From positions 310,001 through 374,000 of the forward strand of contig JAYWIR010000072.1 of NCBI GenBank assembly GCA_036172245.1: DNA of 64,000 nt, read 5' to 3'. Source of the stretch: Raillietiella orientalis. Taxonomy: Eukaryota. The notes beneath the pieces were generated by a model. It had not been told where the DNA came from, searched no databases, and saw nothing but the letters and a program-made list of their open reading frames with translations. The position numbers and the translations under genes are program-made. This document shows positions 1 to 64,000 of the stretch, piece by piece (positions within the stretch are counted from its first letter, which is position 1; each line of letters starts with the position of its first letter).

Positions 1-2240
1 ATCCTTTCTAGGATGCCGGCAAGCTGTTCCTTGATTGATGAATCCAGATGGGTGCATTCAGTCGCTGTCCTCATAAATTCGACTGCGCATTGGACGGCAC
101 CCTTATCGCGTGGTCCAAACGTTGCCTTGCTACAAGGAGCGACGATCCTGCGGATGCAGCACAGGGCTGCTAACGAGAACGAGGGCCGAACGAAGTCGGA
201 AACAAAGAGGGATCTAATTGCGTTTCTGCTGTTGCCACAGGGGATTTCGATTGCTGCGGCGAAGCGGTTGGAATGGGGCCGAAGAGCCTCACAATCCATA
301 AGGAAGTGAAGAAGGAAATGCCGTTCTCGACACCTTACACAATTAGGGTATACCGCTCCCTAGGTCCAATGGTGTCGGCGGAGGTTGCAGGGGAGTCCCC
401 AAAACAGCAGCAGTAGCGCCGAATCCTGCTATTTGAAGGAGAAGATGGAGGTGTTTATCAGAACCGGGGGCCACTTCAGTTGTTCTGGCGAAACTTTTAG
501 CAGCTCACCACAGCGCAAAAGTCCAATAGGGGTGATTATCTGGACTGCAGTATCGCCAAGTATCCCAGTTTTCCATTCCCCGATCTTTTTCTCTGTATCG
601 GAGATTTTAGCAACCACTTCCCATGTCGCCGCAGTATTGCTGTTCAGATGGTCCACGAGGTGAAACAGCATTGGTGCGAGGGGAGTTTTTCTTTTATATG
701 TTCGTTTTTGGGGGTTCTCCACGATCTCTTGCAGCGTGAGGTGGTAGTTGAGCGCAAACAGTTGTGTGCGATATTGATCGGCGCGTCGCTCGTTGCTCCT
801 CGCTCACGTGAAAGCAGTTTCCTGGAGCCAGCCATTTCCATTAAGTGGGCAACAGAAGAGCCTTTCCGCGTTCATTTTCTTTGGATCAGCCACTTTAAGC
901 AACTTTAAACCGCAGCGACCGACTTGGTGGCGACAACGGAGCGATAGGAAGGATGAGACTCCCACCTTGCTCTCCTACAGTTTCACGAGGAGACGTGCAG
1001 GATCGCATCAGCTACTACTCCAATACTTTGCCACTAGGGAGACTAACCGAAACTGGAGCTGGAGCTGCAGCCTCTCCAGCGTCAGGTGACCGAGACAGCC
1101 ATCCGCACGCGGAGCGCTCAAGTTCGCGAGCGGGACTCGGGCTCTCCCCCTACCACACGGGGCAATCCTTAGGTGGTCCTTCGTCTGCTTTATGGTCTCT
1201 GCAATAAGAGGGCCAACAAAAAGTAGGGAACGGAGAAGGGGTTCGCGAACGTGTTCCACACCGCGTCCCATTCCGTCAGGAAAAACCTGCGGCCTTGGAA
1301 CGGGCCGATTGCCGTCTCTACCTTCTCAAGGCAGCTGGACCACTCATCCGATGGGAGATGATACCCCATAGGTAAACCGAGGTACTTGAAGTACCGTACC
1401 TTGTGGATCATCAAACAAACCCAGTCCGGCTGCCCTGCCCACGCCGCACCGAGTGGCATGACAGACAACTTCGCCCTGTTCACCTTAAGCCCGGTTCCTT
1501 GACTTTGCAGGTCGAGGAACTCCTAGACCTCAAATGCCAGGATGGACATAGGAAGCAGCAGCAGTCAATCGTCCGCGTACGCTGAAATCGCCTGCGTACC
1601 GGCGCACTTGAGCGGAATGTGCGCTAGAGTTTGCCTATACCCTCTCAATAACAGCACAAACTGGTAGTGAATAACAAGCGGCTCAGCCTGTCACCCTGCT
1701 GAATCCGACGCCGCACCTGCACGCCGTGCACAGTAAGCCCGTTGAAAGCAAAATTGAATATCGCGTCGCCCCAGCTGTAGCGTAGATTGGCCAATAATGA
1801 TTCCGAAAAGCCCATGCATTCCAGAAGCTCCAGCACGTGATTCTGGTCCACGCAATGGAATGCTTTCCGCAGGTCGACTGTGCCCGCAAGAGCTCTTACC
1901 CAACCGACAATCCGGTCCGTTGCCTGCGAACTTACCTGAATTTCGGTTGCGAATCATGCTCCTTCAATGTACGAGCTCTAGACAGGTAAAGGCGTGTAAC
2001 ATGTTCGCCTCCATGCTTCGCCCGGGAACAGCATATGTCTACTCCGGGAAGGTAAAGACGTTTGCAATTCGTCGCAGGCGCTCTACCCAAACCTTTGCCA
2101 GCAAGTTGGCGTCCGCATTCACTATTGTGATGAGACGCCAGCAGTTGATGCTCCTCAGATCTCCTCCCGTAGAAAGAAGCCGCAACTTCGCCGAACGAAA
2201 CGAGGCGGGAACGTCACCTGTCTCGTTGTATCAGCAAGGT
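1..2240 (-). mobile_element. Tx1/L1-like ORF2 3' part (RT to C-terminal zinc finger), degenerate; subfamily D-like
   Basis: Minus-strand remnants: VNADANL, YAVPGRSMEANMLHA, VRRRIQQGDRLS, AYAD, NRAKLSVMP, KYLG, LTLERLQLQLQFRL; many frameshifts and stops. Confidence 0.9.
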
Positions 2241-3312
2241 GAATCGAGGTACCAGGTAAAAAGATCCACGTTCCGGCGGGCACAAAGAACACTTGCCTGA
2301 AAAGGTATGACCGCTAAACGCTGCAGGATATCGTGCAGTCCTGCGACGTGCTTCTGTGGGCTTTGATTACTCATCTTGCTCCAGTGATGCCTTTCTTGTC
2401 AGCTCTAGTGACAGCAGCGAGCATGGGAAATGAATGGTCTCCTGCAACATCATTTGTGTCCTGCCGTCAGACGGCAGGACACAAATGATTAAGGCGTAGA
2501 CATCGCGGCATCTAACGGAATCTGCGACGCCGAGTGTCCCGCTCATCGAAATTTGACGATGGGGCGAGCTATTCGGACTATCTCCGGAGGAGATGAAGTG
2601 GAACTCAGCGTCCTGGAACAGTGGATCCCTCCCCCTGAAATGGCTGGCGTTGCTTGTCGAACATTAAGGTTTACCGTGCAAAGCACGACTGTATCACTGC
2701 ACACGGGGGCTGTGGATCCCCAGTGCGACCGGTGTGGAGAGAAAGAGACATTTCCCCACCTTTTTCTTGAGTGCAATGCTCTCCGCCTTCCATGGGATCG
2801 CCTTGCGGAAGACTGGACTTGCGCGTAAGCGGCCCTGAGGACGTTTTTAGGCGCCTCTTCTCTCGTGACGCATCGTCACTGTCCGCTTGTGTAGCAGTCC
2901 TTTGCTGCATTCGAGGAATCGTGGAGGCTTCGTGCGCCACTAGAAGAAGGCGTCAGGCTAGCGGCAACGCCTTGCACTGAATTCGCCTTTCCGTGGGAAG
3001 TGTGCGCAAGTGGCACCATTTGTGAGCAGATAGGACTAGCTTGTGAGGATCCTCAACAGGATCTAGAGGACCCATTCGCGCGCAATGTGTTCCCTTCCTT
3101 ACCCTCCCTTCCCTATAAGATTAATGCCCTCCCACGTTTGAACTTTTGTTTGTTTTGTTTCTTTTATCCCTAACCCGTGCATCGGAAGGACCTTGCCTGG
3201 TGAATTCTGGCAAGCAGCAAGCTGTTTTGGTGTGGTGGACCTTTGGGTTCGGCACGCAATAGGGCAATGTCTTTTTATTTTCCAAAAATAAGTGCCCAGG
3301 CATATCCGGGTG
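2241..3312 (+). mobile_element. 5'-truncated Tx1-like element with intact 3' terminus (subfamily F)
   Basis: GAVDPQCDRCGEKETFPHLFLEC; 3' UTR resembles 56385-56640; ends AATAAG..GCCCAGGCATATCCGGGTG. Confidence 0.88.
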
Positions 3313-4206
3313 AGAACGTAGTAAACATCGACGGCCTCGTTGCCGACGTCCACTCTGAGCTGTAGCCCGCCGTTTGCGTTGACGGTCACACGCGCTGCCT
3401 CCATGCCACTGAACAATCTTCCGTAACTTTGGAAGACGTTCGGCTTGGTCCAGAGCGCTTGCACCATACCTTATTTACTGAGTCCCTCCTTCACGAGGCT
3501 TTTCGACATTTGGAGGGTAACTCCCGTGTGGTGCGTTACCACAGAGCGGTCTTCGGTAACCGAGAAGACGTTTCTACCTTCCAGCATGCCGAGGGAATTA
3601 AGCAGGCGCTGAGCCAGGCTCGTATCTCTGCAAGTTGCTCCCATCGCTGACCCGCACTCAGCACTGAAACGCCTTCCAGGTCCTCCTCTTTCACGTTCAA
3701 CCGCTTCAACTCCCTCTCGAAATTGCAGGTGGTATTCTCCAGAAACAAATTTCCTACACTTGTAAATCAACGACGGCTTGATTACTTGTTCAAGGAAGGC
3801 ACGCTGATCTGCTATAGCTGCATGAGATGGCGCTGCAGCCATGGCGCTCCAGGTCTTCGTGGTTGGAGAAGACGGATCCACGGACGCCGTTGCCCCCTTT
3901 TTCGAGGGGGCGGTTGCGCCCTTTTCAAGGAGCGTGCTTGTTTTTTTTTTCAAAGTGGGCGGTTGCCCTATCATTCGAGGTGACGGTTGCTCCTTTTCCA
4001 AGGGGGCGGTTGTCCTTTACTCCGTGGGAGCAATTGCACCCACCTTCGTAGGTTGGGGAGCGGAACAAGCCTCTCCCTCTTCAATATCCATCGCGGTGTC
4101 CTCAGGCATTCCTACCATGGCACACCGGAGATATACCACTCACAAACAAACTAAAAAAAGCTTCGCAAACTTATGCGTCAAAAGCGCAGAGAAAACACGT
4201 TCGCAC
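3313..4206 (-). mobile_element. Tx1-like 5' end and ORF1 N-half (subfamily B)
   Basis: WSAMAAAPS, NVKEEDLEG, KKGATA repeats; homologous to 32161-33110; 5' motif GTGCGAACGTGTTTT. Confidence 0.88.
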
Positions 4207-6941
4207 GCATCCCGTGCTCGAGAGCGCCGCCCGAGCGGGATGTTTCACGACTCTTGCTTCCGGAAGGCGCAGCAGCTATCCGGAGGTAGGAGAGAAAGTC
4301 CATCGACCAGCCTTTTACGAAGGGCGATATCATCTCAGCCAACGGAAAGCTCAAGAGGTGCAAGGCACCAGGGGAGGACGGCCTGCCGGCGAAGTTTTAG
4401 CATACTTTCGCGGCAGAGCTAACTCCCCTGGTACATCAACTTACCTTGCTGATACGAAAGACAGGTGACGTTCCTACTCGTTTCGATCGGCAAAGGTGCG
4501 GTTCCCCACTAATGGAGATCTAAGGAGCATGAAAAACTGGTACCATCACAATGGTGAATGCTGACGCCAAGTTGCTAGCCAACCTTTGGGCATAGCAAAT
4601 ACGAATGGTTGTAAACGCCTTCAACAGCCCGGGGCAGACATGCTCCGGGCTGATGCATCGCGTGCATCACGCAGGAGGTGTTCACGTGCGATGCATGGAG
4701 GCAAACCTGTTTCAATCTTCCACATGGTTAGAGCTCCAACAACGAAGGGGCTTATTGAGCAACCGGAATTTCAATGCGTTCGTCGGTGGAAGTCGGGATG
4801 GTCGGGTGGGGGAGATAACCCTTGCGGTCGCTGTCGACTTGCGTAAGGCATTCGACAGCGTCGACCAGAATCTCATGCTGGAGCTTCTGGAACGCTTGGG
4901 CTTCCCGGCCTCTTTGTTGGTCTACCTGCGCTCGAGATGGCGCGATGCACTCATTAACGTCTTTTTCAGCGGGCAAACCGTGAACGCCGTACCGGTGCGA
5001 CGCGGCATACAAAAGGGAGACAGCTTGGATCCCTTGCTCTTCAGCGCCTTTTTCAAATTGGTGCTGAGATCGTATAGGGCGACTCTGACGCTCCTGCCGC
5101 GCGAATGTCCCAGTACACCTGCGGTTTTGGCATACGCGGAAGACCTGCTGCTTCTGCTACCTATGTCCGCCCCGGCTTCGGAGATCGAGGAGTATTTCGA
5201 CCAGCTGACTCGTGGAACAGGACTAACGGTGAACAGGGCGAAGTCGACCGTCATGCCAATCGGAGAGACGTGCGCAGGGAAGCAGAACTGGGTCCGTTTG
5301 TGGAACCCCACGGTGAGGTACTTAAGGACTTTGGTGTGCCTTTAGGGAATTATTCCCTTGCGGAAAGGTGTTCCGGCTGCCTCCAGAAAGCTCAGGGGAC
5401 GATCGACCCGTTCCAGAACGGCAGTTTATTCCTTCAGGAACGATCCGGGCGTGAAATGCGTTTGCGGCTCCCCTGCTTCGTCCGTTGCTTTCTGTTTGCC
5501 TTCTACTCTGCGGGATCAAGGAAAAGGACGAAGGAGCTCCTAAGGATCGCTTTTCGGGGAACAAGAAGACCCTGAGTCCGTCTTTCGGATTTGTGCGTTC
5601 TTCGTCGAGATGGTGGTCTGGGCCTCCTAACGCTGCAGCGGCTGGAGCTTCAGCTCCAGTTTCGGATAGTTCCTTTGATGACAAATAAGTGGTAATCCCC
5701 CTGGTGCGTCCCTGCACGTCCCCTCGTCGAGCAGAGAAACCAAGGGAAACGCGGGAATCTCGTCCTACTTTGCACTTTGATGACCGAAATGCCACTGCAA
5801 AATCCAGCTTCAGAGGGCGGCCAAACAAGTAAAGACCAACATGAGATCGGTCTTCGTACGCTTCGCGAACAATAGTGCCTGGTTGCCGGAAACCTTTCGC
5901 ACGTGGGCAATGACTCAAGTGCAGAGCCCTCAATACGAGCAAATAGCTCTTTTCCGACCGCACGTCCACCGCACGCTCCGAGAAATCGTCCAGGATCCCC
6001 GAAGTAGAGCGTGCGCACAATGAACCTTTCTTGCTGCGGTACTGCCTACCCTACGGGATCATGTATGAAGCGACATCGCGCCACATTAAGAGGTTGCTGT
6101 TAAGATCGCCACCAGGGTAAAGAAGATCGGGGATTGAAGAACGGGCCGGCTGACCAACGCTGCGACTCAGAGGACCACCCCAAAATGACTGTTGCGCAGG
6201 GGCGAGCTAATGAATGTTTTGAAAGAACATCGCGAGAGGCTCCCGGTGCTCATGGGCTCGCACACTGTCCCAATTAAATGACAACATTCGGCACTGCTGG
6301 TGTTGCATTGGGACCTTCCCTGCATCTCCCGCGAGTCCACTGGCAGCAGGGGGGTTTCAATCCTAATTGTGTGAGGTGTAAGGAGAGGAAAAATCTCACT
6401 CACCTTTTAGTGGATTGTATTGCCCTCCGTCTCTTGCGGGAATTCTTTGCCGCGGCCCTGGGTATCTCCGGAGGCAACCCCTGAGGCGCTTTTCGCCCCT
6501 TTTTCGTCTATTTCGCTTTGCCTACAGCGGCCTGGCTTGTAGCTTAGTGCTGCCTACGCGGGATCGTCGTGGCACGGAGCAAAGCGACACGAGGATCCAG
6601 AGACGGGCATGCCACCGTGTATGCCGCCTGCTTCCTGCGGTTGAGGACGCGATGTCCCATCTAAAATCCTCCATTCAGCAACAGCTTACCGGCATCCTCC
6701 ACAGGATGATGGACCCTCCCAGCAGGCAGTGATCCCTTTCCGCTCCCTCCCTGATTTTTGTTCATTTTTTGTTTTCTTTTTGTTTCGTTCCCACTCCCCT
6801 CTGCTGCCTAGGTCGACCGCGCCGGTCGGCACTCCGGTAGCCCGGATTGCTGATACTTTCTAGGGCGTGGCTGTACTGCCGGTTCACTCAAAGTGTAGAT
6901 ATGTTTACTTGACAAAATAAACGTCCCGGCGAAGCGGGATT
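4207..6941 (+). mobile_element. Tx1-like ORF2 post-endonuclease part to 3' end, degenerate (subfamily D-like)
   Basis: ORF 4605-5345 has AVDLRKAFD, RRGIQKGDSLDP and AYAED; AATAAA at 6916-6921 followed by hairpin. Confidence 0.9.
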
Positions 6942-7092
6942 CAGTCGAGCGCCGATGCCTGCATGAACGCAGGAAGCAGAAGCAGAAACTTTTCGGCATA
7001 GGTCGACACGGCATGCGTGCCAGGACATGAGCTCGGTACGGTTGCCAAAGTCTCCTTGTATGCTCTTAGCACCAACTCAAACTAGATGCTGA
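6942..7092 (-). mobile_element. Short RT fragment
   Basis: Minus strand reads FELVLRAYKETLATVPSSCPGTHAVSTYAEKFLLLLP. Confidence 0.8.
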
Positions 7093-7978
7093 CTTTCATG
7101 ACAGCGATGTTGCGGCGAAGTGGGCGTTCAAAGCAATCATCTCCGGAAAAAAGAAGAAGCTGGGAGAGTGGAAGTCGGGCCAGTCAACAGATGCTGTGAC
7201 CCCGAACACGCCTCCCAATGGACTTCAGAGCGGGATCGCGCTGCTCTATTCTCCTAATGAACATCTAAAGTGTCCTCGGTGCTAAGAAACAAGTCCACGC
7301 TTCCGTCAAAATGACAGAAGTCGGCTCTACTGTTGAAGCATTATGGACTCCATTGCAGCGCCCGCCGACACCACTGGACCTGGGGAGCGGTCGATGCCAA
7401 CTGTGTGAGGTGTGAGGAACAAGAATCCCTCCCCCACCTCATAGTGGATTGTGTTGTTCTTCGCCCCTTTGGTTCCGCTTTGCCGTGGCCTTCGGAATCC
7501 ACTGCGGCAACCCCAGGGACTCTTTAAAAGCCTTCTTCGCTGCCGAAGCGGTCCGGCCAGCAGCCTCGATAGCCGCCTTGTGCTGCCTTTGCGGGATTAT
7601 TGCTGCATGGAGCATGGCCACCGGAAGACCATGCGATAAGGAGGTCATCCAGTGAGCGCCCCAATTCCTGAGGAGGGCATCGCGATTGCCAAATATGGAT
7701 TCGCTATTGCAGGAAGAGCTTGCCGGCATCCTGAGAAGGATGATACGGTCCCAGAAGCAACAGTGATATCTTCCCGTACCCTCCCACTTTTTTTTTTGTT
7801 TTGTTTAATTTTTTCTTTTACCCCTTTCCCCGTGCTGCCTAGGAGGACTGCACGGGTTTCCGAACCGTTGCTCCGGTAGGCTCCGCGTTTCTTCGTGCGT
7901 GGCTGGAGCATTGCTGCAGCCACTGTCATCTTCTTGTAATGTTTATTCTTAAATAAACGACTTGGGAAAATCCAGTTG
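7093..7978 (+). mobile_element. 5'-truncated element, C-terminus and 3' end (subfamily D)
   Basis: HHWTWGAVDANCVRCEEQESLPHLIVDC; AATAAA at 7952-7957 then ACTTGGGAAAATCCAGTTG. Confidence 0.87.
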
Positions 7979-7999
7979 AAAATCAAATCCTTTACGAGC

Positions 8000-9133
8000 G
8001 TTAGGACAGGCGTATTTTCTCGTTGCTCCTCGTGCCAGGAACCTTGCCTAGGTGCAAGCATTGTGTGGTTCGGTGGTCGAACAGGCCTGAGAAGAACAAC
8101 AGTGAGTGTCAGGAGGCGGCGGCAACGTCGTTATCAGTGGCGATAAAAGTGCGGGCATCCGCACCCACATTGTAGTTCCCCGCTGCAGCGCGGGTGTTAA
8201 GTGCCTTCGTAACGGCACCATTACCGGCAGGAGCGGTGGAATTTTCGGGCTATGTGGAGGAGGGGAACAACCCCTCACTGATCTACAGGGTAGGCAATCA
8301 TTAATGTTCTAAAAGCGTGCGCCAATTCTCGAGAGGGATGAATGCTCTCAATGTACAAAAGGAGGAGCTCTGCGCTTTGACCATCCGCAGTGGGGGGCAG
8401 TACGTTGAGAGATCTGAAAATACGCAGATCTGGCCCAACGTCTGATCAAATCCAACGTGGTCATGGAAACAGGCAGGCAGCATTCCGGTCCCCATTAAGA
8501 CGGTCCCCATTTAGAAGTGACCGCGCGAATGCGGATAGATTGAGTACGCGCCGCGTTGGGAGAACAAGGCACGGTCCATGCAGTGTGAACCAAGCCTAGT
8601 CCTTTCGAAAACCATACTAAACTTCAATGCGGCTTGATGGCTGCACGAGTAACCATAAGGCTCTACCCTTCCCCACAAACTGGTATTTGTTGACAAAAGC
8701 GTCGACCTCTGATACGTGGGAAAGCCCAAATTCTGTGGCTTCTGCAACACGTCGGGACACCTCAAAAGGAGATGCCCCAACGTACAGTGCCAAGTATTCG
8801 GGACAATGGGCCACACAATGGAGGTGTTGTCAAAAGCCGCTGTGCGTAGGGTTTCCGTAAGGAACCTAAAAAACGCTTACAGCTAATACAAAAAGGCTGG
8901 CCGCGAAAGCTGCCGCTAAAGCTGTGCCACCCGCGCCCATGTTTCAGCACTCACTTGAAACCGCGGCAAAGTACGCCGAAAAGGTAGAGAGAATCGGCGA
9001 GGAACCCTGGTAGCAAGGTACAAAACCGAAAAGAAAGTCGGAAAGAGAAAGCCGACTAGAAAAGAAACTCGCCCACTGAAACAAAATACAAGAGGGTAGC
9101 GAGATAAGGAAAGAATGCAGCGTCGTCGTATAT
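8000..9133 (+). mobile_element. 5' end and degenerate ORF1 (subfamily D)
   Basis: Homologous to ORF1 at 44776-46521: GGQYVE, CGFCNTSGHLKRRCP, KECSVVV. Confidence 0.85.
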
Positions 9134-10140
9134 TACTGGGTTGCGCCTGTAGGTTTATTAATAATATCGTTTGGGAACTCTGCTCCCAAGCAAGGGGAAC
9201 AGAATATGGTAAAGAGGGCTCCCGACTCCCAGGCCGGGCACACTGAGAGTTCGAAACGATAGGGAGAGGATAATAAATAAATAAATAGGGTGGAAAAATG
9301 GGGACAGGGGTATGCAGTCCAGCCGTTCTTATTCTCAGCAGAGGCGGTGAATGCCGGCAATCTCCATTCTCACTTTTGTTCCGAGGTGTGACCACCTGGC
9401 AGCCATTTTTTGGTTGCAGTCTGCAGTGTCGGGTACCGATGTTGGTACCGCTAGCACCTGCAATACGTGGCGGACCCTGACAATGGCGCAGACGCAGCAG
9501 ATGATTGCGACGACAGCTCCAAGAGAAAGACCGCTACGCGTGAAGAAGTGGCGCATCCAATCCATTGTGGTGTGTCCGGGGTGCAGGAGCGCTGAAGACA
9601 GCCGCCGCCACAGCCCATGGTAGACACCGCATTCAAATAGCAAATGCGGAGGCGTTTCCACCGCTCCGCATGTTGCACAGTTCAAAGACGCAACTCCCCA
9701 GGAAACCAGGTGCGCCCGCTGGTTGCAGCACAGACCCCAATGCACCAGCAGAAGAGCGTCTTGATTCCAACGAAGAGGGAAGACATTTGCGTCCAAGCAC
9801 GCAGAAGGGACCACAAGTTCTTCGGTGGGCACCCCGAGGAGCTCCCTCCACCGGAGAAGTCCCTTGGCACGAAACCGAGGGGGGCAGCGTCTGCCAGCTC
9901 GCAAGTCCGCCAGCCGCCCAGCAGTCACGTTTCGCCTGCGATTCCACAAGCGACCTCCCACTTCGCAGGTAAGTCACTGTCGTCTCGCATCATCAGTGCA
10001 GACAGTGATTCGGCGAGTGACGTAGCGGCTAGGCGTGTCCACTGGTCCTGGTCTTCCAGCACCTCCCTCACTGCACAGTATGAGGAAAGGTCCACGCAAC
10101 GGAGTTCCAAACGGGACACATTCTTTTGCGTTGCACAGAA
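9134..10140 (-). mobile_element. 5'-truncated element, C-terminus and 3' end (subfamily G)
   Basis: CATCGAVETPPHLLFEC; similar to 51224-52250; minus-strand AATAAA at 9154-9159. Confidence 0.87.
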
Positions 10141-10336
10141 CGATAAGGCCACCACCATCATTAGTATGATGCGTGGAATCGCCTCTTAAAGGCAGCTGCG
10201 TATGTCCTCTTGGAATGTCAACGGGCTAGGTAGCTAAAGCAAGAGGCGTAGCGTGGCAGACACACTGCGACCTTTCGACCTGATACTTCTTCAAAAGGTT
10301 CACGCTCTCAGAGTAGAAGACGTCCAGGAGATTTCT
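10141..10336 (+). mobile_element. ORF1/ORF2 junction and start of APE endonuclease
   Basis: TGATG then MRGIAS..SWNVNGL..FDLILLQ..QEIS. Confidence 0.82.
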
Positions 10337-11473
10337 CACCAGGTTACGCCGGGGAGTTCATTTAATATAACATAAACACAAACAATCATATAAAATAAAT
10401 CAGTTGGGAACCATGATCCCAACCAACGAATGAACAAGGATCAATATAAGATTGCTGGCACGCAGGTTAGAATAACAGTCTTGTTAACAATGTGTGGGGA
10501 CAAGGAATACAAGCAAACAAAAACAAAAGAAAAAGAAAATAATGAGGACGCTGGGACAAGGGTCTTTGGGATCGCTCTGGTGCGTGTCGGGATAAAAGTA
10601 ATTTACCGACATTTTAGCAGAGCGAGCGGGGAATGGGTATGGGTGGGCAACAGGTCAAAGTGGTCACCGGATTACGCCGTTCTTGAAAGTCTGATAACCA
10701 GCAATGGATGCCGGCGATGCCCTCTTTGACCTCGTAACGAAGATAAGGCCACCTAGCAGCCTTTTCCATGGATTATGCTGCAAACCGGTGAGCTTCCCTT
10801 TGCAGCGCTGGCAACCACAGGGCGTAGTGGGTGTTCACGATAACACGAATCCAACATATGGCTGTGACAATCGCGACTACCGAAAATACATTTCCGCTAA
10901 AGAAGCTTTGCAGCACATCAGTGGCAGTGCCTTCCTGCGGCAGGATGGCCTTCGCCACAGTTCACGGAGGTTACCGCAGTCCAAAAAGAGCTGCGGAAAA
11001 GACTCGATCTCTTCGCACCTCGAACAGTTTGGCAAAGCAGCTACCACGGAAACACTGCTACGCTGCAGATTACAGTGTAAAAAGAGCAGGAAATCTTGTT
11101 TCCACTTTGAGGGGGACACAAAGCTGTCCAAACAAACGGGGAGAACCACTTTCTCTCCCTGGGGTTACACTTGAATGCTCACTCCACCGAAGCAGGCCCT
11201 TGGCCCGATTACGAGGAGTTGCAGTTTCCATCAGCTGCTTTGCCGTCCAGCCGCCGAGGAGCATACTGATTCCCGCTATTATACAGGAGAACTCCCATTT
11301 CACCGGTAGGCAACTGTCATTGCTTGTCTTGAAGGACAGACAGCCCTGCGGCGAGTGGTGTGTCGGACGGACGATCCTTCTTCTTCTTGTCCTGCATGAC
11401 TTCGTCCATTGGATGACTGAGGAGAAGTCACAGGCTTCAAAGATCTTCCGGGCGCTTTCCTACCGAAGATGCT
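10337..11473 (-). mobile_element. C-terminus and 3' end (subfamily E)
   Basis: CSRCEEIESFPQLFLDC; reverse-complement homolog of about 43430-44594. Confidence 0.87.
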
Positions 11474-44400: not shown

Positions 44401-44594
44401 TTATTTTCGTTTCTTTGTGTTCACCAACCCTTCACACGGTTCTCAAAACTGTTACTCTGGCCTGCGTGCCAGCAATATTCTCTTCATTCTTGTTCAGTCG
44501 TCGGTTGGGAGTTTGGTTCCCAACTGGTTTATTTTGTAAAATTCCTTTTTTTTGCTTCTGTTATATGGAATAAACGCTTCGGCGTGACCGAGTG
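41475..44594 (+). mobile_element. ORF2 from LEDWNDLK to 3' end (subfamily E)
   Basis: ORFs 41535-41990, 42003-42260 and 42270-42824 (AYADD); AATAAA at 44569 then CGCTTCGGCGTGACCGAGTG. Confidence 0.92.
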
Positions 44595-46524: not shown

Positions 46525-46549
46525 TCGAGCGCATCAGGCGTTCGATTTT

Positions 46550-54200: not shown

Positions 54201-56384
54201 AGTCCACGAGCTTTCGAACGGCAAAGGTCCGGAGATGCTGGCGGAGGTACTCCGCAGCCACCGGATTTCTCAACCAGTCGGCCGACAACCTCCAGACGTG
54301 CGTCGGAGGGCCCTTGCCAGGCAGGAGTAGCTCAAACTCCAGCCTGTAGTGGTCGGAAAGCTCGGACGGCACGGGACCTCTGCGGCCCACCCGGCAATGC
54401 AGGTGATCGTCGAGGAACACATGGTCCGGCAAAGCACGCATTCCGGGATCGTCGGCCAGCAAATTCGAGGCGTGCACCGACGCGCACACCTCGTTCACCA
54501 GCCGTTTCTCCCGGCGACGGTGAGACTCCTCCGATTGCGCGTGGACGTTGAAGTCCCCGGCTACGAGGTCAGCCACGTCGGGGCCGGAGTTGCTGAGCCA
54601 GCGGTCGCGCAGTCTCTCGAAAAACTCCAGTTTCTCGGTGTGACGCGCGGAGCCGCTCGGCGCGTACACGTTCGTGACGACAAGGTTGATCGATTCGGAC
54701 CACTTGAGAACAAGTTGGCCCACACGACCTTCCTGGTCGAAACAAACGCTCCGCACCGCTCCCGCCACCCTACCCCGGACAAGGAATGCGACTCCGCAGG
54801 TATTCTGGGAGCCTGACCTCCAATGGGGCGTCCCGCCTGCGCGAACTTGCAGATTTGCCGCTTGCTGCTCGGAGAGTGCGTGAATCTCCTGCAGCAGGGC
54901 CAGATCGAAGTCGCGCAAGACGTTGGCAACCAATCGCCTCTTCTCGTTGTCCTGCAGCCCCTTGACGTTCCAACAGGCCACTCGGACGCGACGGGAAGAA
55001 GCGAGACCGCGCATTGCTGCTACGGACATGGAGGTGCGTTCCTCGCCCCGTCCGGCGAGGCATCAGCCGGGAGCACGGCGGATGAGGTAGCGCCAGCGCT
55101 TCCTGTCCCCGCCGCGCCGCTGGCGGCCGGCTCGGTGGAGTCGAGGACCATTGCCTCGGGCTCCGAGGAGAATCGGGAACCATTCCCGGCATCAGGCTCT
55201 TGCCTGGCAAGTTTTGGCTTGCGCGCAGCCCTGGCCTTGACCGGGGCTTGGCGAGCCTTAGCGCTGCCCTCGGACTCCACCTCGGAGTCCGAATTGCGCG
55301 CGCGGCGGCGGGCGTTTCGCCTGCCTCTTTGTTTGCTGGCAGCCCGGAGCTGGTCCAGCACTCTTAGAGGGTGCCTTCGTCGCCGATCCCCCTTTCGGGG
55401 TCACGGCTTCGGCAGCTCCCCTGTCGCCGCGGGTGTTTGCGGCGGCGCGCGCGGCGGCAGCAGAGGCTTTTCCTTGCGCTTTTCCGGGCGCGCGGGGTTG
55501 CCTCTTCACCCCGCCTACCTTTTGGATCGGGAAGTGGGAAGGATCGCGCGGTTTGCGCTCCTTCTTTCCCCCGACGAAGGTCCAGCCATCCTCGCCGCCT
55601 ACCTGTTTGCCCCGGTTGGGCGCGAGGGCTTCCAGGGTCCTTCGCATCCTTTCGAAGGCCTCGGATACGGCGATGGAGGCCAGTGTCTCCTTCGCCACGT
55701 CTGCCTTCTGCACCTCCTTACCGGGAGGTGCGGGCACAGTGGCGGGATTCTCGGGTGTCGCACGAGGCTTTTCAGCCTTTGCTGGCGTTCAGCCCGCCGT
55801 GGCCGGCTTGCCTGTCGCGGGCAAAGGGGCGCGCGACCCCTTTTTCGACGCTCCGGTGGTCTTTTCGGGCGTGCCACCGCTATTTCGCTCCGGAGCGAGA
55901 GCGGACGGAAGCGGCGGTGGTTTTGCAGCCTGCCCGATGTTATCGGCGGGCTGGGTCGCTCGGGGCTTCACTGAAGCAGCCTGGAGAAGCTTCTTGTCCT
56001 TTCGCGCGTGTTTTTTTGGAGCATTGCTCCGAGAATCGCCAGCGCAAGCGGACTTTTCACTTCTCCGATGAGAATGCTCGTTCGCGCCTGATTTCTTCCC
56101 CGACGACGGGGCGGATGGAGTCGGCGCGGAAGGCGATGTTGCGGGGGGGTTTCTCGCCCTCCTCTTTCGTTTCAGCTCGGCGCACTCGTTAATCGAGTGG
56201 CCGAGCAGCTTACAGTATAGGCAACTGCGTGTTGGCACTTCCGCGGACGGTGGCCCTCCTTCCCGCAGTTGCCGCAAGCGGGGGTTTGCCCGGCAAACCG
56301 GAGATAGACGACGACGTCACCGAGGAGGATCTGCGAAGGCATGAGCCTCCGGTCGTCCATGTTGACGCGCGCCGTCGCAATTCA
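51224..56384 (-). mobile_element. Most complete Tx1-like element (subfamily G): ORF1 C-half, whole ORF2 and 3' end
   Basis: CGNCGKEGH and CLYCKLLGH knuckles; ORF2 55029-51448; terminal hairpin at 51224-51249. Confidence 0.94.
51448..55029 (-). pseudogene. ORF2 (APE-RT-zinc finger), about 1190 codons with two in-frame stops
   Basis: ORFs 54199-55029, 53845-54153 and 51448-53808 share one frame; YADD and CKRCGEVETLPHLLLDC. Confidence 0.92.
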
Positions 56385-59322
56385 CACCCGGATGTGCCGG
56401 GGCATTTATTTCTTGGAAATAAAAATACATGAAATATCGCGTGGTGAACTCGAAGGTTCACCACTCCAAAACAGCCTGCTGGTTACCGGCTCCATGCCGG
56501 AGAGGTCCTTCCGATGCGCGGGGATGGGAAATAAAGAAAAACAAAAAGAAACAAAAAGTTCAAATGTGGGGAGGGAACAGATGTTGTAGGGGTGGGAGGG
56601 CCGGGAAGGGATCACGGTGCGCGTGGAAAGGTCCTCTAGATCCTATTCAGGATCCGCACAAGCTGAGTCCTTTCAGCGCCAAAGTGGCGCCACTTGCAGA
56701 CACTGCGCGCGAGAAGGCGAGTCCAGTGTAAGGCGTTGCCGGTTGGCTGACGCCTTCTTCTGGTGGCGTTCCAAGCCGCCACTATTTCTCTGATGCAGCA
56801 GAGGATTGCTACACTAGCGGGCGGGGACAAGGCGTCACTACAGAAGAACCTGAAAACCTCCTTTGGGCCGCATCCGCGCAAGTCCAGGATCACCGCGAGA
56901 CGATCCCACAAAGGGCGGAGGGCGCTACACTCAAGGAGAAGGTGGGGGAATGTTTCTTTTACCCCACACCGGTCACAATTGGGATCCACAGCCCCCCAAG
57001 TGGTGTGGTGCAGGCGTGTTTTAAATGGTAATACCCAGAGTACCACAAGCAACGCCACATCCTGCCATTTCAAGGGGAGGAATGCACTGTTCCAGGACGC
57101 TGGGGGCCACTTCATCTCCTCCGGAGATAGTCCGAGTAGCTCACCCCAGCGTCGAATTCCGTTCGGAGAGACACTCGGCGTCGCAGCGTCAGCTAGTTGC
57201 CAAGAAGTCCACGCCTTTATCGATTGTGTCCTGCCGCCCATAGTGCAGCACACGGTCCATTTCCCCTGCTCGCTACTGTCACTAGCATGCACAAGGAAGG
57301 GCAGCACTGGGGCGAGGGGGGTTATCAACGCCCACAGAGGCTTGTCGTGGGACTGCACGATCTCCTGCAGCGTCCAGCGGGCGTGCCTTTTCATACAAGT
57401 GTTCCTTGTGCCCGCCGGAACGTGGATCTTTTCCCAGGTGGAGACTGACTCGTGCAACCAGGCGGAGTAGTTCCCTGGGAGGCAGAAGATCCAGGCGTTC
57501 TCCCGAACCGCAACGAAGATGCGTCGCAGCATAGAGCCACAGTATGGTCTTCTGCAGACGCGCGCAGACAGAAACAACAAAAGTCCGGCGATTCCGCAGG
57601 CTCGTTGGGCCAGGAGACGTGCTGGAACGCACCAAGGCGTGTCCCACAATTCCGCCGAAAGGGCGAGAGTCCTGAATCCAAGTTGTAGTTCCATGCGCTC
57701 CAGCGTAAGTACGCCAAGTCCACCGTCCTTACGTGAAGCGCACAAGTCTTTGAGCCTCACAAGGGACCTCCCTTTGCCCCAAAGGACTGTCCTCAGGAGG
57801 CCCGCTGCTCGTTTCCGAATAAAATAAGGGGCGGGGCAAAGAAAAAGTAGGGGGCGAAGGAGGGGAGCCGCAAACGCGTTCCACACCGCGGCCCGTTCCT
57901 GCAAGTAAAACTTGCCTTCTTGGAACGGACCGATCGCCAACGCTGCCTTTTGGAGACGGTCGGACCAGGCTTCTGCTGCGCAGAAGTCCCCCAACGGTAC
58001 GCCGAGGTACTTGAAGCACCTGCCCGTGGGGATCTTCAAGCGGAACCAGTCCGACCGTCCAGCTCACGCCGAACCGACGAAGACCATGGACGACTTCGCC
58101 CTGTTCACCTCCAGGCCCGTCCCGCGGCGCAGCAACTCGAAGAAGTCCTCGAGTGCACTCGCCGGGGTGGACCCGGGAAGCAGCAGCAGAAGATCGTCTG
58201 CATAGGCGGACACGGCAGGCTTGCCGGGACACGAGCTCGGCAGGGCTGCCAGAGTTACCCTGTATGCCCTCAGCACCAACTCAAAGTAGATGCTGAAGAG
58301 CAAGGGGCTAAGGCTGTCACCCTGCCGGATGCCGCGGCGTACGGGCACGCCGTACACGTGCCGGCCGCTGAAACCAATATTGATTGACGCGTTGCGCCAG
58401 CAGGAGCGCAGGTAAGATTGAAGCACGGCAAGGAAACCCATGCGTTCCAGGAGCTCCAGAAGGAGATCCTGTTCGACGCATTCGAATGCTTTGTGCAAAT
58501 CGACCGCGACGGCAAAGGCTCCCGCCGACTCCATCCCACCCTCTGCCCGATCTTCTTGGTCAGAGGGGGGCGCGAGGCTCGCTTGACCGTCCTGTGCAAC
58601 GCGTTGTCGCGACTGCCACCATGAGCTGGCAAGGAGCAGGTTGGCCTCCATGGTTCGTACGGGAACAGCATAGGTCTGCTCGGGACTCACCACGGAAGCG
58701 GCCACCCGCCCCAAACCCTCAGCTCACAACTTGGCATACAACTTTGCGTCCGCATTCACTACTGTGATGGGACCCGAGTTGCCAATGTTGCGTAAGTCTC
58801 CTGACTTCGGCAGGAGACGTACTTTAGCTGACCGGAACGAGGCGGGAACTTCGCCGTGTTCGCGGATCAGCGCACTTAACCTAAGCACCAGGGGGGCCAG
58901 CTCTGGCGCAAAGCGATGGTAAAACTCCGCGGGCAGGCCGTCCTCCCCTGGTGCCTTCCTTCTCTTGAGCCTGTTGATGGTGGAGATCATCTCCGCCATC
59001 GTGAACGGTTCCGCCAATCTGGAACGGTCCTCCTCCTTTTGCGCGGGAGCACCAACCGGCAGCAGGCGCTGCGCGAAATTGCGCTCAGGTGTTAGTGGCG
59101 CGTACAAGGAGGAATAAAACTCCCTCACGATGCAGCTTACCTGGGCTGGGCTGGAGCGTTCTTGGCCCTGATGATCCAGCAGGCAGGCCGAGCCTGACTG
59201 CCAGGCCTGCCTCTCCGCCTCAGCCTTGAATTCAGCCAGGCGACGGACGTCGGGACGCCGGGAATAACGGCGCGCCTGGAGGTACGCCCGCTCGTTCCTG
59301 ACACCCTCGCCGAATCCCTTGG
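56385..59322 (-). mobile_element. ORF2 from AKGFG to 3' end (subfamily F)
   Basis: ORFs 58724-59401, 58064-58714 (AYADD) and 56636-58039; hairpin at 56385-56410. Confidence 0.93.
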
Positions 59323-61640
59323 CGAGTGGACGTGTGTTTCCTTCGCTCCCGAGTGAGTCGACAGGAAGCGGTTTTTTGTTGTGTTGTTTAATGTGAAACA
59401 TCGTTGGTTTCCGATGGCAGCGATGCCTGAGGACACCACGATGGAGGTAGGTGCAGGGGAGACTTGCCCACCCCCACAGCCTACAGAATCAGAGGCGTGC
59501 GCCCCGGAATCGCACTCGCCGCTCAAGGCGAGGAGCTGGAGCGCCAAGGTGGCCGCGCCGAGCGCGGAAACCATGGCCGAGATGGCGGCCTACCGGGCAG
59601 CTGAATACAAGCCCAGCTTGGTTTACCAGGTAGGCAATCTCTTTCACGGGCGAACTGCACGCGCTTTCTCGAAAGCGCTGCAGAACGCCAACGTGTTGGA
59701 AAAGGACCTTGACGGTCTATCCGTGCTCAGCGGGGGTCAGCGCGTCGAGGTTGTCTGCAAGGACATCACCTTGGCGCAAAGCTTGATTACCACTTCACTG
59801 AACGTGGACGGTTGCAAGATCCTACCAGTCACGATGGACCGCTCCGTAGTGGTATATCTGACAGGGATCGCCAGCCGCATGACGCGTTCTGCGGTTGGTG
59901 ATCAGTTAAGAAAGTATGGGGATGTTCACGCGCTATGGCGACGGCCACAATCTTCGATGGCCACGATAGCCTTTTAGGAGGGCAGGCCGCCGCGCGCGTG
60001 ACGGTGAAGGAGAGTGGGCTTCGCCACAAACTAGAGGTCAATGGCGAAGTCGTAGACCTCTGGTACGTGGGGAAACCCCGCTTTTGTGGCTACTGCAATG
60101 CAGTAGGACACTTGCGCAAGCTATGCCCGAACATTGTGTGCCACTTATGCGGAAAGAAGGGCCACGTACGCCGCGTATGCCCTAAACGCCCCACTCCGGT
60201 GCCGCCTGCTGCAAAGAAAGCACAGGCAAAACGCGGTAAACTGGTCAAAAGACCAAAAAGAGATACTGGCCGGCAGCAGCCGCTAGCCCCTTCTCCTCCC
60301 CCACAGGCGTCGGAAGAAAAACCCTCCGAAGACGCGGGAGTCCAAGACGGCTGGCAGCTGGTCAAGGCCAGGAAGGAGAAAAAGGTGCCCCCCGCGGAAC
60401 CCGCGAAAGCGGTAAAAAAGACAGCCGGCAAGGCGAAAAAACCTTGGCCGCGCTCTAAGACCATGCGGGAGTGTACGGTAGCACTGGAGCGCATAGCCGT
60501 TCCCGAGATTGCCACCCGGGGCGACGAGCCTTCCCTCGCCGTTTCCCCCGCGCTTGAGGTTCGCGACGGCGAACCCTCTGTTTACACAGAGGGTGAGCCG
60601 CGGGAAATAGCGACGGTCGAAGCCGAGGACGCCGCGTTCACTCAGGTGGCGGAGGAACTCGCGGCCACGCTGGCCGAGCGTGGGAAACCCTCGCGCAAGG
60701 CCGTGCAAAGGCCGGCACCCGCGAAAAAGGCCCCCACAGGTGAGTCGGACCTGGGGGCTGGAAGTGCATCCTCCTCCTTGGAGCCACCCCCAGGAAGTCG
60801 GGACGCAAGTCCCAGAAACCCAGGAGGCGCCTCCCCTCCACCAGCGAGGAGGAGAAGCAGGAAGGTAGCGGTGGCGTGGGAATCCCGGAGGGGGAACTCC
60901 CACGCTCGGAAGCCGTCGAGCCGGCCACCCCCATGGAGGAGGGTGAGCAGGGGGGCGAAGTCCTCCCTGCAGTCGCCGAGCCTGAAAAGCCCGCCCCCAT
61001 GGAGGAGGGTCAACAGGTAGGCGCGACCCCACCTGAGGGTGACCCGCTCGACGCGCTGTTACCCATGAAGGCGGGGGACCAGGTGCACGCAGCGCCTGAC
61101 CCTCCTCCTCCACCTAGCGTCTCGCCCCAACAGGTGGCGGACGCCGCATCGCCATCTTCCCAGGAGTAACACCTGGGCTCGCCAGCCGCCGTCGGATTCG
61201 CGCCGCCTCTTGGAACGTCAACGGGCTGCGCGACGACGGTAACAGGCGAGATACGGCCGACACCCTGCGTAAGCTCGACCTGGCCCTGCTAGAGGAGATC
61301 CACGTGATCACCGCGGCAGACGCCCAGGAGATCCAGACGTTCGCGGGGGGTCGGTTGTATTGGCGGTGCGGCCTCCTCAACACCTGCGGGGTCGCGTTCT
61401 TCGTGAAGCCGGCCATCGACGCTGCCGTGAAGAGCGTGCGCTTCGATGACGACGGTCGGGACGGTCAGCTGATTCTCAGCTGGTCCGAGTCGATCGAACT
61501 GATCGTCACGAATGTGTACGCCCCCAGCGGTAAACAGGGAGACAGCGACCGTACCAGGCTGCTGGAATCCCTGAAGCGCGACTGGCTGGCAGACACGAAC
61601 GTGCGGAAGGCTCACCTGATAGCGGGAGATTTCAATCGAG
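59323..61640 (+). mobile_element. 5' end, ORF1 and APE up to GDFN (subfamily C)
   Basis: ORFs 59381-59977 and 59935-61020 (CGYCNAVGH, CHLCGKKGH), 60876-61169; APE to AGDFN. Confidence 0.92.
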
Positions 61641-64000
61641 TGCGGACGTGTTTTTCTTCGCTCTCGTCTCCGTGCTTTCATCCGCTTCATCTTGGCGTCG
61701 TACATTTTGACGACGATGTCGACCCAACTTGAAGCTACTGAAGTTGGAGGAACAGCATCTGGATCTGCAATCGCGGAACCGACGGCCGCCTCCACCTCGT
61801 CTTTCTCGCCAATGGAGAGGGGTTTTGCTGACGTTGCTGCCACAGCAGCCGTCAAAGGGAAACCACTCGACGAGTCGGAGTTGCGGGCAGACGTAGCCCA
61901 AGGCTATAGACCTGCTCTCCGATATAAGGTGAGTGGTTTTCTTTCTGCGCGCGACGTGAATCAGTTCAACGATGAACTGACGCGTGTTGGCGTGCGGGAG
62001 GAGGACCTTCTCGCCATTATGCCCGTAAAAGACATGGGCTATTTCAAGGTGCGTTGCAAAGACGCTGCACTTGTGCAACGTTTGCTGCGCACCCCGTTGT
62101 CGATCCGTGGCCAGAAGGTCTTCCCGGCCGCCATGGACGACTCATTTGTGGTGGAGATTTTCGACATCGAGTCGGAAATCTCCGATACTGATATTCGGAA
62201 CGCGTTGGCGAAATTCGCAACGGTCCATGCGCTGTGGAGGGTGCGTAGCAACCTCAAGGACTTCCCGTCCATACACAGCGGAGTCGCTGGAATCCAGCTT
62301 TGTGCCCGGACCGCCGTCTGCCTGCAAACTACAGCTGAATGACACGGTCGTTCACACGCAGTTCATCAGGCAAAGTAAAAACGTGCGAGCAATGCGGGAA
62401 GGGGGGGCATTGTTTGGATAAATGCCCCTCTGGAAAATGCCGAATTATTACAAACTATCCGAACTCCAGTGAAAATTGCCCGGATCTTTTGCGAAGAAAG
62501 GCAGCCGCAGAGCTCGATCTTAAAAAACAAAACGCGGATAAAAAGAAAAAATCTGCGAGAAACCTGGAGATTCCACGGCAGAAATTCCGAAAAAACGCGA
62601 GGCGGAATGTCGCCCCAAAGCAGCAGGAAACCTCGCAAGCGAAGCCCGGCGCGCCCCCTCTCGCGGCAGGGAAGCCGCAAAAGAAAGGGTGCGGGGAATC
62701 CGGGGCAATGGTAAGTCCCCCTAGGCGCAATAGCTGTCCTTCATAAGCACACTCAGCTCTTTCGGAGTTTTAGTAACCGGCGGGGACGTCAATCGACAAC
62801 GGAGGTAAGGACACTTCCAGTACCGTCAGATTCATTCCTCCACCTCCTGCAGTGGCTGAGAAGCACAAATCGGGTAAGAAGGGTTATGCCGTGTCGACTT
62901 TGAAAGTCGGCAAAGAAAAATCCGCGTCGAGATCCAACACCGCGAAAGCGGAGAAAAATCTCATGCCTTCGCAGTCGGATAGCAAGCTCTCGACTGGCGC
63001 GGATGCCATGCCAACGAAGGGATTAGAAGCCCTTCCGAAGGCACGGTCCATGACGAGCGTGTCGGAGCTATCGAAACTGCTCCAGTTTAAAGACGCGGAT
63101 GGCTTCAAAGATGGCAATGGAGCACAATCTCCATTTACGGCCTGCAGTGAACAATGAAGTAGGAGCCAGCAAGGTCCCTCGTTCTGTAGCTGCAGAGCAC
63201 GCACGCTGAAAACAACCTTCGGGAAAGCAGCCGTCACCAAAAGCGATGCCCTGGTGACGGAAAACGAAAACAGGACAGCTGTCAATCCAGCAGAACCTGT
63301 CACTGCTTCGCGGAAGGCCGAAATCCGATCGAACAGGCGCCGGTCGGACTCCGAAATGGATGCCGTTCCGATCACCGAGACGAGGACAACTCGTTCGAAA
63401 GCGTGTGCGCGCCGATCAAAAGTAGGCAGCCAGGCAACGCTCGCCGCGAAGCAACGCGAAGTCTCCACGAAACCCGACGGGGTTCAGCCTGGCGTGGAGG
63501 CATTACATGCATGCAGCACGACAGAGGACGGTGGCGACCGTCCCCTCCAGCCAGTCGTGCTGCTCGCCGTCTGCTCGCCGGATAAAGCGAGAAAAAAGCC
63601 GCCACCTTCCCAGCAGTAATGCGGGGAATCGCGTCTTCTCGTCGTCTGTCCGTAACGTGTTGGAACGTGAACGGACTGCAGAACGACGAGAAGAGGCGAT
63701 TAGTAGCCAACGCTCTGCGCCCCTTCGACCTCGCGCTCCTGCAGGAGATTCACGTAATCTCCGACGAGCAGGCAGCCGAAATCGAGGAGCGCGCAGGCGG
63801 AACGCTACATTGGCGGTGCGGCGGCGTACACACGTGCGGCGTCGCGTTCCTCGTAAGAGGAAAAATGGCGGAAGCGGTGCGTAGTGTTCGTTTCGATGAC
63901 AACGGACGGATAGGCCAGCTTGTCATCAAGTGGTCCGAGTCCATCGATCTCGTCGTTACGAACGTCTACGCGCCGAGTGGCTCTCGCTACCTCGAAGAAA
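61641..64000 (+). mobile_element. 5' end, ORF1 (frameshifted) and APE start, running off the window
   Basis: GTGCGGACGTGTTTTT; ORF 61692-62342; CEQCGKGGHCLDKC; TAATG at 63617; WNVNGL, NVYAP. Confidence 0.9.

Follow-up and report, generated by a model that had tools for sequence, protein, structure and literature searches.

Recurrent antisense junctions among mutually inserted LINE fragments in a gene-free 64-kb cluster of Raillietiella orientalis

Here, we describe a 64,000-nucleotide (nt) stretch of DNA from Raillietiella orientalis (assembly GCA_036172245.1, contig JAYWIR010000072.1, positions 310,001-374,000, forward strand; hereafter the window), from which all results are drawn. The window is a gene-free cluster of long interspersed nuclear element (LINE) fragments that interrupt one another over the full 64 kb, and it resolves into about 32 fragments of non-LTR elements (those without long terminal repeats) with an apurinic/apyrimidinic endonuclease (APE) and a reverse transcriptase (RT), representing at least five diverged lineages and one more distant LINE family. 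For insertions inside the body of a resident copy, the resident sense strand has almost always been the primer strand, so that the new copy lies antisense, and a few positions have been struck repeatedly, with nucleotide precision, by independent events. The cluster probably arose by repeated target-primed reverse transcription (TPRT) of one L1-superfamily LINE group into resident copies of the same group.

G+C content across the window is between 52 and 65%. Pfam searches with 221 stop-to-stop open reading frames (ORFs) of at least 120 amino acids gave matches on both strands to RVT_1 (9), Exo_endo_phos (7) and CCHC zinc knuckles (3), one weak match to zf-RVT (27.2 bits against a cut-off of 27.5), and none to other Pfam families. 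No tRNA genes or Rfam families were detected within the window. Self-comparison (blastn) yielded 105 non-self pairs with 64-94% identity. Tandem repeats are limited to 24/48-nt units inside ORF1 of two copies; these arrays, of at most 9 units, lie in the N-terminal part of ORF1 in the alpha-clade fragments A19 (32327-32525) and C (49063-49278), both listed below.

The elements are of APE type (L1 superfamily), with an ORF2 in which APE is followed by RT on one strand. In the most intact copy (B), an Exo_endo_phos ORF at 54202-55062(-) lies N-terminal to an RT/C-terminal ORF (RVT_1) of 798 amino acids at 51451-53844(-), and three ORF1 pieces contain zf-CCHC or zf-CCHC_2. In the main family, each of the 13 3' ends has AATAAA, then a short G+C hairpin, then an A-rich tail of 2-5 bases; none of the 13 has a poly(A) tail, and in this the elements depart from the poly(A) or A-rich tail of L1-type elements. 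The consensus fold of the hairpin has 7 pairs (5-7 bp), 3 of them with compensatory changes, and in 8 of the 13 3' flanks the A-rich tail is followed by TC. Twelve 5' ends share the core ..GCG(T/A)G(C/T)GGACGTGT.., within a 5' terminus whose core reads ..GCGnGnGGACGTGT... The closest database protein (P0013, 619 amino acids, 61% identity), from a 2.9-kb metagenome contig, is the sole close relative; the nearest named proteins are plant-type L1-like proteins and proteins of Closterium and Haematococcus, at 23-29% identity, and no homologue named Zepp appears among the 25 matches listed. Scanning metagenome contigs for the 3' motif produced one match (L001), a chance match without similarity to the window; the same scan of genome contigs gave 0 matches, and a protein scan of viral contigs found 0 relatives.

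Fragments were mapped by blastn, and by tblastx in the true coding frames, onto two reference copies: C (48850-51222(+)), which covers the element from its 5' end through ORF1 into the beginning of ORF2, and B (56385-51215(-)), which begins at the ORF1 zinc knuckle, reaches the 3' end and has APE and RT in collinear order. C and B overlap with an offset of 806, giving a common coordinate U (U = C = B+806) and an element length of about 5975 nt. Lineages G1-G5 were defined from the 3' 850 nt and are 45-80% identical to one another; clades alpha to delta were defined from the APE region. The positions named in the map are T1, the linker just after APE with codons ..P-x-G-F-G.. (GGnTTYGGnG; the 'GFG' linker); T2, in early APE, 12 codons past the LQEIH motif; T2', 28 nt beyond T2; T4, at B4131-4136, about 1.04 kb before the 3' end; T5, the RT motif N-A-D-A-K-L; and the RT motif K-A-F-D (KAFD). 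The fragments are as follows.

1..2240, minus strand: A1, RT-to-C-terminal piece, U~3497 to ~5740, running past the window start; G5 (placed by tblastx to B and by trees)
2259..3312, plus strand: A2, 5'-truncated, begins at T4; its 3' end (3312) adjoins antisense ORF1 of A3; G2
3316..4206, minus strand: A3, 5' end (4206) to ORF1 U1011; the 5' end adjoins antisense A4 at U~3261
4207..6941, plus strand: A4, U~3261 to the 3' end, which adjoins the antisense RT fragment A5
6944..7111, minus strand: A5, 170-nt RT fragment, U4059-4226, between two plus-strand inserts
7100..7990, plus strand: A6, 5'-truncated, U~5094 to the 3' end; head-to-tail before A7; G5
7991..9133, plus strand: A7, 5' end to ORF1 U~1420, interrupted by the 3' end of antisense A8
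9133..10138, minus strand: A8, 5'-truncated, begins at T4; 3' end at 9133; G4
10140..10332, plus strand: A9, 200-nt APE fragment, terminates at T2
10333..11473, minus strand: A10, 5'-truncated, begins at T4; 3' end antisense at T2 of A9; G3
11474..12720, minus strand: A11, ORF1-APE fragment, terminates at U2780; gamma clade
12720..15290, plus strand: A12, divergent LINE 5' part with zf-CCHC ORF1 and APE (about 30% amino acid identity to the main family)
15290..19175, minus strand: E1, copy of the distant LINE family (RVT_1); type of its junction with A12 uncertain
19190..23870, minus strand: E2, second copy of the distant LINE family; head-to-tail with E1 and A13
23880..24714, minus strand: A13, 3' part with the exact 3' motif; head-to-tail before the E2 5' end
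24932..25216, minus strand: A14, 285-nt fragment, U3225-3509; 90% identical to B
25226..27798, plus strand: A15, 5' end to T1, broken there by the A16 3' end; delta clade
27799..29903, minus strand: A16, U3882 to the 3' end, antisense at T1 of A15; hosts A17; G1
29904..31890, plus strand: A17, 5'-truncated, in antisense host A16+A18 at KAFD; 92-94% identical to A25
31891..32153, minus strand: A18, host remnant, U~3600-3895; 78% identical to A21 (G1-like)
32154..35130, plus strand: A19, full 5' end at T5 of A18 (microhomology), runs to T1, where it abuts the interior of antisense A20; alpha clade
35130..35935, minus strand: A20, 5' end at T1 of A21; internal deletion; 3'-truncated at U~2410; 92-94% identical to A29
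35936..38880, plus strand: A21, T1 to the 3' end, which lies antisense at T1 of A22; G1
38881..41474, minus strand: A22, 5' end (41474) to T1; beta clade
41477..44598, plus strand: A23, U2982 to the 3' end, T1 intact; 3' end antisense at T2 of A24; G3
44599..46525, minus strand: A24, 5' end to T2; 5' end head-to-tail after the A25 3' end; beta clade
46538..48888, minus strand: A25, T5 (U~3630) to the 3' end; G5
48889..51220, plus strand: C, full 5' end at T5 of A25; ORF1 (one in-frame stop) and APE start; cut at T2' by B; alpha clade
51221..56385, minus strand: B, U807 to the 3' end, collinear across T1; 3' end antisense in C
56385..59320, minus strand: A28, T1 to the 3' end; RVT_1 and weak zf-RVT; 3' end adjoins B's truncated start on the same strand; G2
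59321..61636, plus strand: A29, full 5' end at T1 of A28; ORF1 and APE to the GDFN motif; alpha clade
61637..64000, plus strand: A30/A31, 5' end adjoins the sense strand of A29; runs past the window end; gamma clade

The initial annotation, made from the same DNA, listed about 22 junctions between opposite-strand elements. Nucleotide-level alignment shows all 22 to be real and at most 6 nt from the refined breakpoints (for example 27798/9, 29903/4, 31890/1, 35129-32, 35935/6, 38880/1, 44598/9, 51220/1 and 59320/1), and adds a strand flip at ~15290 that had been missed. Its figure of about 3 same-strand internal junctions was an undercount, as at least nine are present (7990, 11473, ~19185, 23880, 24714-24932, 35794, 46538, 56385 and 61636/7). 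With strand flips at 23 of 33 junctions (one-sided p = 0.018), the antisense excess over 50:50 is significant in the window, though less extreme than the 22:3 first counted.

The geometry that had been proposed for antisense insertion, with 3' ends at the upstream and 5' ends at the downstream part of the host, is borne out for most termini. Nine of 14 3' ends border on an antisense copy at its upstream part (3312, 6941, 9133, 10333, 27799, 31890, 38880, 44598 and 51221), one adjoins a sense copy (56385), and four lie directly before the 5' end of a same-strand copy, head-to-tail (7990, ~19190, 23880 and 46538). Likewise, seven of 12 5' ends adjoin the downstream part of an antisense copy (4206, 25226, 32154, 35935, 41474, 48889 and 59321) and four are in head-to-tail tandems; the remaining one (61637, within 61625-61648), where A30 sits on A29 after the APE GDFN codons, is the only sense internal 5' junction. 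Internal 3' junctions are antisense in 10 of 11 cases (p = 0.006). Since the likeness of E1 to E2 stops at 15572, 15290 is only a possible 3' end, and this junction is excluded from the counts; without it, 9 of 10 internal 3' junctions are antisense (binomial p = 0.011), in agreement with the earlier view of APE-type LINE copies inserted into one another mainly in antisense.

One insertion is textbook-clean. A17 (29904-31890) is truly nested in its antisense host A16+A18 at KAFD and is flanked by a 14-nt target duplication (29890-29903 / 31891-31904, 12 of 14 identical). The 3' ends of A17 (31882-31898) and A25 (46538-46554), copies that are 92-94% identical, both terminate ..GGGTGAAAATCGAACGC, and the last 8 bases of A17 equal the host antisense KAFD sequence and the target site duplication (TSD). 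This coincidence suggests that the G5 3' tail may pair with the KAFD target; microhomology between 3' tail and target is clear for G5 at KAFD only. A different kind of join is found at 35129-35132, where A19 halts exactly at T1 and meets antisense A20 not at its 3' end but internally (U~2410), with a 3-nt overlap. Either internally primed reverse transcription at the T1 nick or a deletion ending exactly at an old junction would produce it, and as a candidate TSD of A19/A21 around A20 only 5-6 nt can be matched.

Several breakpoints recur at the same position of the element. T1 is broken in five of the seven fragments that reach it, and only B and A23 cross it intact. Among fragments that end at T1 ('up'), A15 and A22 stand against the 3' end of an antisense copy and A19 against an internal point of antisense A20, while for those that start there ('down'), A21 and A28, the neighbour is an antisense copy with its full 5' end. 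The overlap between 'up' ends and 'down' starts measures 10-13 nt, which implies a target duplication of that length. At T2, A9 and A24 terminate at the same base and both breaks carry the 3' end of a G3 copy, with nine other fragments crossing the site (2 of 11 broken); C terminates at T2' against the B 3' end. At T5, the 5' ends of A19 and C meet the antisense host at the same base, and 8-11 nt from the start of the element (CTTGGCGTGCGGAC) also occur in the antisense host sequence at this site, an indication that the 5' ends were joined through microhomology. Insertion into conserved coding motifs, as the initial annotation suggested, is therefore seen as recurrent breakpoints at the 'GFG' linker after APE, in early APE, at NADAKL and at KAFD. 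T1 and T2 are hit with nucleotide precision and in antisense every time, with 2-5 events per site, and other copies in the window land elsewhere.

In simulations, the chance of at least two coincident pairs is p = 0.001 among 10 3' junction positions and p = 0.0002 among seven 5' junction positions. The seven antisense 5' junctions all fall inside U2982-3630, and the simulated chance of seven such junctions within 650 nt is p = 7.5e-6, or 7e-4 if only five are independent.

Two further observations concern 5' ends. The element begins with CTTGGCG(T/A)G(C/T)GGAC, which is similar to the antisense of the sequence coding for RT motif 1 (..GCGGACGCCAAGTTG..), a likeness found at 32151-32161, 48885-48895, 35925-35948 and 59308-59331; the start of the 5' untranslated region may derive from an antisense RT fragment, or may have been retained because it helps 5' joining. 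T4 is the shared start of three truncated copies, A2 of G2 (2259), A8 of G4 (10138) and A10 of G3 (11473), a triple coincidence with simulated p = 0.0002, and zero 'up' fragments end there. Instead of a target, T4 looks like a favoured point of 5' truncation, or like the start of a template that is subgenomic or processed.

Sites and lineages are partly linked. Both G1 copies (A16, A21) inserted at T1 and both G3 copies (A10, A23) at T2. The G5 copies A6, A25 and A13 are in tandems, A17 is at KAFD and A4 at U4226; G2 is found at antisense ORF1 U1011 (A2) and on the sense strand at U807 (A28), and G4 at antisense ORF1 U1420 (A8) and at T2' (B). By APE sequence, fragments fall into clades alpha (A19, C, A20, A29), beta (A22, A24), gamma (B, A11, A31) and delta (A15, A9), and the alpha 5' ends are located at T1 (A20, A29) or T5 (A19, C). 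G1 and the alpha 5' parts are probably the same lineage; if alpha is indeed the 5' half of G1, all T1 events come from one lineage.

The initial annotation read the pieces between 24.9 and 46.5 kb as a five-level bracket, (-)[(+)[(-)[(+)[(-)]]]], that is, as a literal recursive nest in which several subfamilies each have an endonuclease for their own conserved ORF2 motif in relatives. The strands do alternate, the fragments between 25.2 and 46.5 kb follow the order (up+, down-, up+, centre, down+, up-, down+, up-) expected from recursive antisense insertion at one site, and A17 within A16/A18 is a true nest. The split hosts that such a bracket requires are not found, as its two outer pairs are different elements: A15 (25226-27798) and A23 (41477-44598), tried as one host, are only 73% identical over their 80-nt overlap, where A23 and B are 87% identical, and of A14 (24932-25216) and A24 (44599-46525) the former is 90% and the latter 59% identical to B. 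Further inside, APE identity is 66% between A19 (alpha) and A22 (beta) and RT identity is 87% between A21 and A16, so the two inner pairs (A19+A21, A22+A18/A16) cannot both be correct. Host pieces on either side of an insert are usually different elements. The idea that each subfamily has its own motif is supported for G1 at T1 and G3 at T2, each seen twice, and does not extend to G2, G4 and G5, which have no constant site, nor to the two ORF1 targets and the four of 14 3' ends in tandems. Taken literally, the recursive nest is thus a doubtful account of the window.

Unlikely, too, is an unspecific transposon graveyard, with random sites and orientations later scrambled by inversions and deletions, in which the coincidences would be due to chance or alignment artefacts. 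The junctions at 35130, ~15290, 2240-2259 and 11473 join two truncated copies and host halves seldom match, so rearrangements have happened, and the orientation excess over all junctions is modest. Against this, breakpoints coincide within 0-3 nt, at the simulated probabilities given above for 3' and 5' junctions, T1 is broken in most of the fragments that reach it and shows a TSD-like overlap, and the same lineage comes back to the same site.

About as improbable as such scrambling is an origin of the recurrent composite junctions from a few ancestral insertions, followed by segmental, tandem or inverted duplication and divergence. Three composite blocks do align across a junction (26922-29903 with the reverse complement of 36764-39764, 74.6%; 32046-34438 with 48781-51218, 80.4%; and 7100-9129 with the reverse complement of 45332-47432, 71.8%), and the divergence of both junction sides was therefore compared. 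At T1, the difference at codon positions 1/2/3 is 4.6/5.6/7.1% between the 'down' inserts A20 and A29 and 27/17/42% between their hosts A21 and A28; the 'up' inserts are 87% identical in RT and their hosts, of different clades, 64% in APE. At T5, identity is 88% between the inserts A19 and C and 62% between the hosts A18 and A25, with the nearest relatives of the hosts elsewhere (A18 to A21, 78%; A25 to A1, 78%), and at T2 the inserts are 78% and the hosts 52% identical. Junction sides have thus diverged unequally (6% vs 29%, 12% vs 38%, 22% vs 48%), and hosts at the same site come from different clades. Given this incongruence, the shared junctions cannot go back to a single ancestral event multiplied by segmental duplication, an origin that the initial annotation had itself raised. 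Differences between copies (25-35%) are richest at third codon positions, and in-frame stops are few (an estimated 1 per 190 aligned codons), which indicates divergence of lineages under selection and not decay after duplication.

Least probable is that the junctions are assembly artefacts, chimeric joins or foldback reads in a region that consists 100% of repeats and shares only 16% of its sampled words with the one public DNA run found (X1), because adjacent opposite-strand arms come from different lineages (45-80% identical) and are not the near-identical arms of foldbacks, which were rejected on that ground, because junctions fall at element termini with intact 3' or 5' motifs and A17 has a TSD, and because the same junction types return with different partners. 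No RNA run is listed as containing the sampled words. From X1, 257 contigs were matched to 24900-44899, 21 of them at least 99% alike; uncovered parts count neither for nor against a junction. One extends 30 letters beyond the junction at 44598/9, one letter short of the bridging rule, and was not counted; another connects 32161 with 36468 on opposite strands (side 45, likeness at least 90), a weak hint of a third T5-type junction.

Repeated TPRT of one LINE group into its own resident copies remains the best explanation of the cluster. TPRT would be primed from a sense-strand nick in a resident copy at few preferred sites, with an endonuclease or ribonucleoprotein (RNP) that favours a limited number of positions in the sense strand of related copies, and this preference would be partly lineage-specific (G1/alpha for T1, G3 for T2). 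The 5' end may be attached by microhomology, or to a second nicked copy or at a distance, with removal of host sequence; host-deleting attachment would explain why 'up' and 'down' host pieces usually come from different elements, and later deletions between copies are an alternative to attachment at a distance. Repeated rounds of insertion would give the strand alternation, and renewed use of an occupied site the head-to-tail tandems.

Several points weigh against this explanation. Five of the 14 3' ends and five of the 12 5' ends are not antisense, and at A19/A20 (35130) and A12/E1 (~15290) two truncated copies meet tail-to-tail, an arrangement that plain TPRT does not generate. Only A17 has both flanks in one demonstrably continuous host; the flanks A15/A23 and A14/A24 are different elements, so that extra deletions or joins must be assumed. 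G2, G4 and G5 copies lack a single target, every link of a lineage to a site is based on 2-5 events, and the endonuclease specificity is one that we infer. The data come from a single 64-kb window, scans of public collections having yielded zero further copies, and from a repeat-only stretch of the assembly.

More tentatively, the window may represent a community of diverged LINEs that reproduces mainly by mutual insertion, through sense-strand nicks at few conserved coding motifs and with lineage-specific sites: G1/alpha at the post-APE 'GFG' linker, G3 in early APE and other lineages at RT motifs. If so, each event would inactivate a relative and create convergent sense/antisense units, and the antisense bias would come from a mechanism and not from chance, for instance through transcription- or R-loop-dependent exposure of the sense strand, or through recognition of antisense-strand sequence by the RNP. 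Such targeting would have no described counterpart in Zepp, Tx1 or R-type elements. Should the lineage-to-site links hold, related retrotransposon lineages would use each other's coding sequence as a safe landing site, and the resulting natural source of convergent transcription units could feed RNA silencing; should they fail genome-wide, what remains is a LINE cluster of an ordinary kind with heavy rearrangement. A safe haven, the disabling of competitors and a role for sense/antisense RNA are speculation. What the window supplies are nucleotide-level targets (T1, T2, NADAKL and KAFD) and a strand rule.

Known systems share some of these features. The Zepp element has a poly(A) tail, which the window elements lack. 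Zepp of Chlorella and Coccomyxa and ZeppL of Chlamydomonas are described as L1-type LINEs that target their own copies and form one cluster per chromosome, tens of kb long, gene-poor, GC-rich relative to the genome and thought to mark centromeres (PMC3446292, PMC8226300, PMC9940879); the clusters are characterised as nested tandem arrays of mostly 3' ends (PMC8226300). The window resembles them as a gene-poor nested cluster of an L1-superfamily LINE inserting into its own copies, and differs in that internal insertions are mostly antisense (9 of 14 3' ends) and 12 copies have a recognisable 5' end. It also differs in having breakpoints that recur at defined ORF2 positions and several coexisting lineages, 45-80% identical, and no close protein similarity to the named algal elements is seen among the matches listed.

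The Tx1 and R1 groups include site-specific APE LINEs, among them Tx1L (in Tx1D), Keno, Dewa, Mutsu and R1, that insert at precise positions in other repeats, namely a DNA transposon, snRNA, tRNA or rRNA genes, or microsatellites. With 2-5 events per site, the window elements appear to resemble them in their recurrent nucleotide-precise 3' junctions in another repeat, fixed orientation and short target duplications. Unlike them, they strike coding motifs of their own relatives at several sites, and they prefer these sites (2 of 11 fragments broken at T2, 5 of 7 at T1) without being strictly specific for them. In L1 twin priming (5' inversion), two arms of one RNA have abutting coordinates and the 3' end lies at the flank. 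Adjacent opposite-strand segments in the window look similar, but twin priming was rejected as their origin, with arms from different lineages, overlapping coordinates and the 3' end at the internal junction. Tandem dimers of transposable elements are reported to arise by double insertion at one site (McGurk and Barbash 2018, PMC5932611). The head-to-tail pairs at 7990, 19190, 23880 and 46538 are like such dimers, as re-use of a preferred site would give; unlike in such dimers, the partners here are usually of different lineages and tandems are the minority arrangement. A literature search found no described antisense, multi-lineage, ORF-motif-targeting LINE system, which is not proof of absence. 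From these comparisons, the window appears to unite the self-targeting clusters of the Zepp type with site-specific LINE targeting, and to add antisense, multi-lineage and coding-motif features.

Across all aligned coding sequence there are about 69 in-frame stops (TGA 28, TAG 21, TAA 20). About 70 nt upstream of T1, one conserved Trp codon is replaced by TGA in B (54190-54200(-)), A15 (27720-27730(+)) and A22 (38950-38960(-)), and reads TGG in A23 and A19; window-wide, 10 of the 28 in-frame TGA codons align with Trp and 5 with Arg. The pattern is a G-to-A/CpG transition signature and not a code change. A code with TGA as Trp was rejected, as stops are spread over all three kinds, which indicates decaying copies with the ordinary code. 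Finally, the distant LINE family at 15290-23870(-) has a different 3' end and the same GGACGTGT 5' core as the main family, and its extent matches a GC-skew plateau of +0.11 to +0.14.

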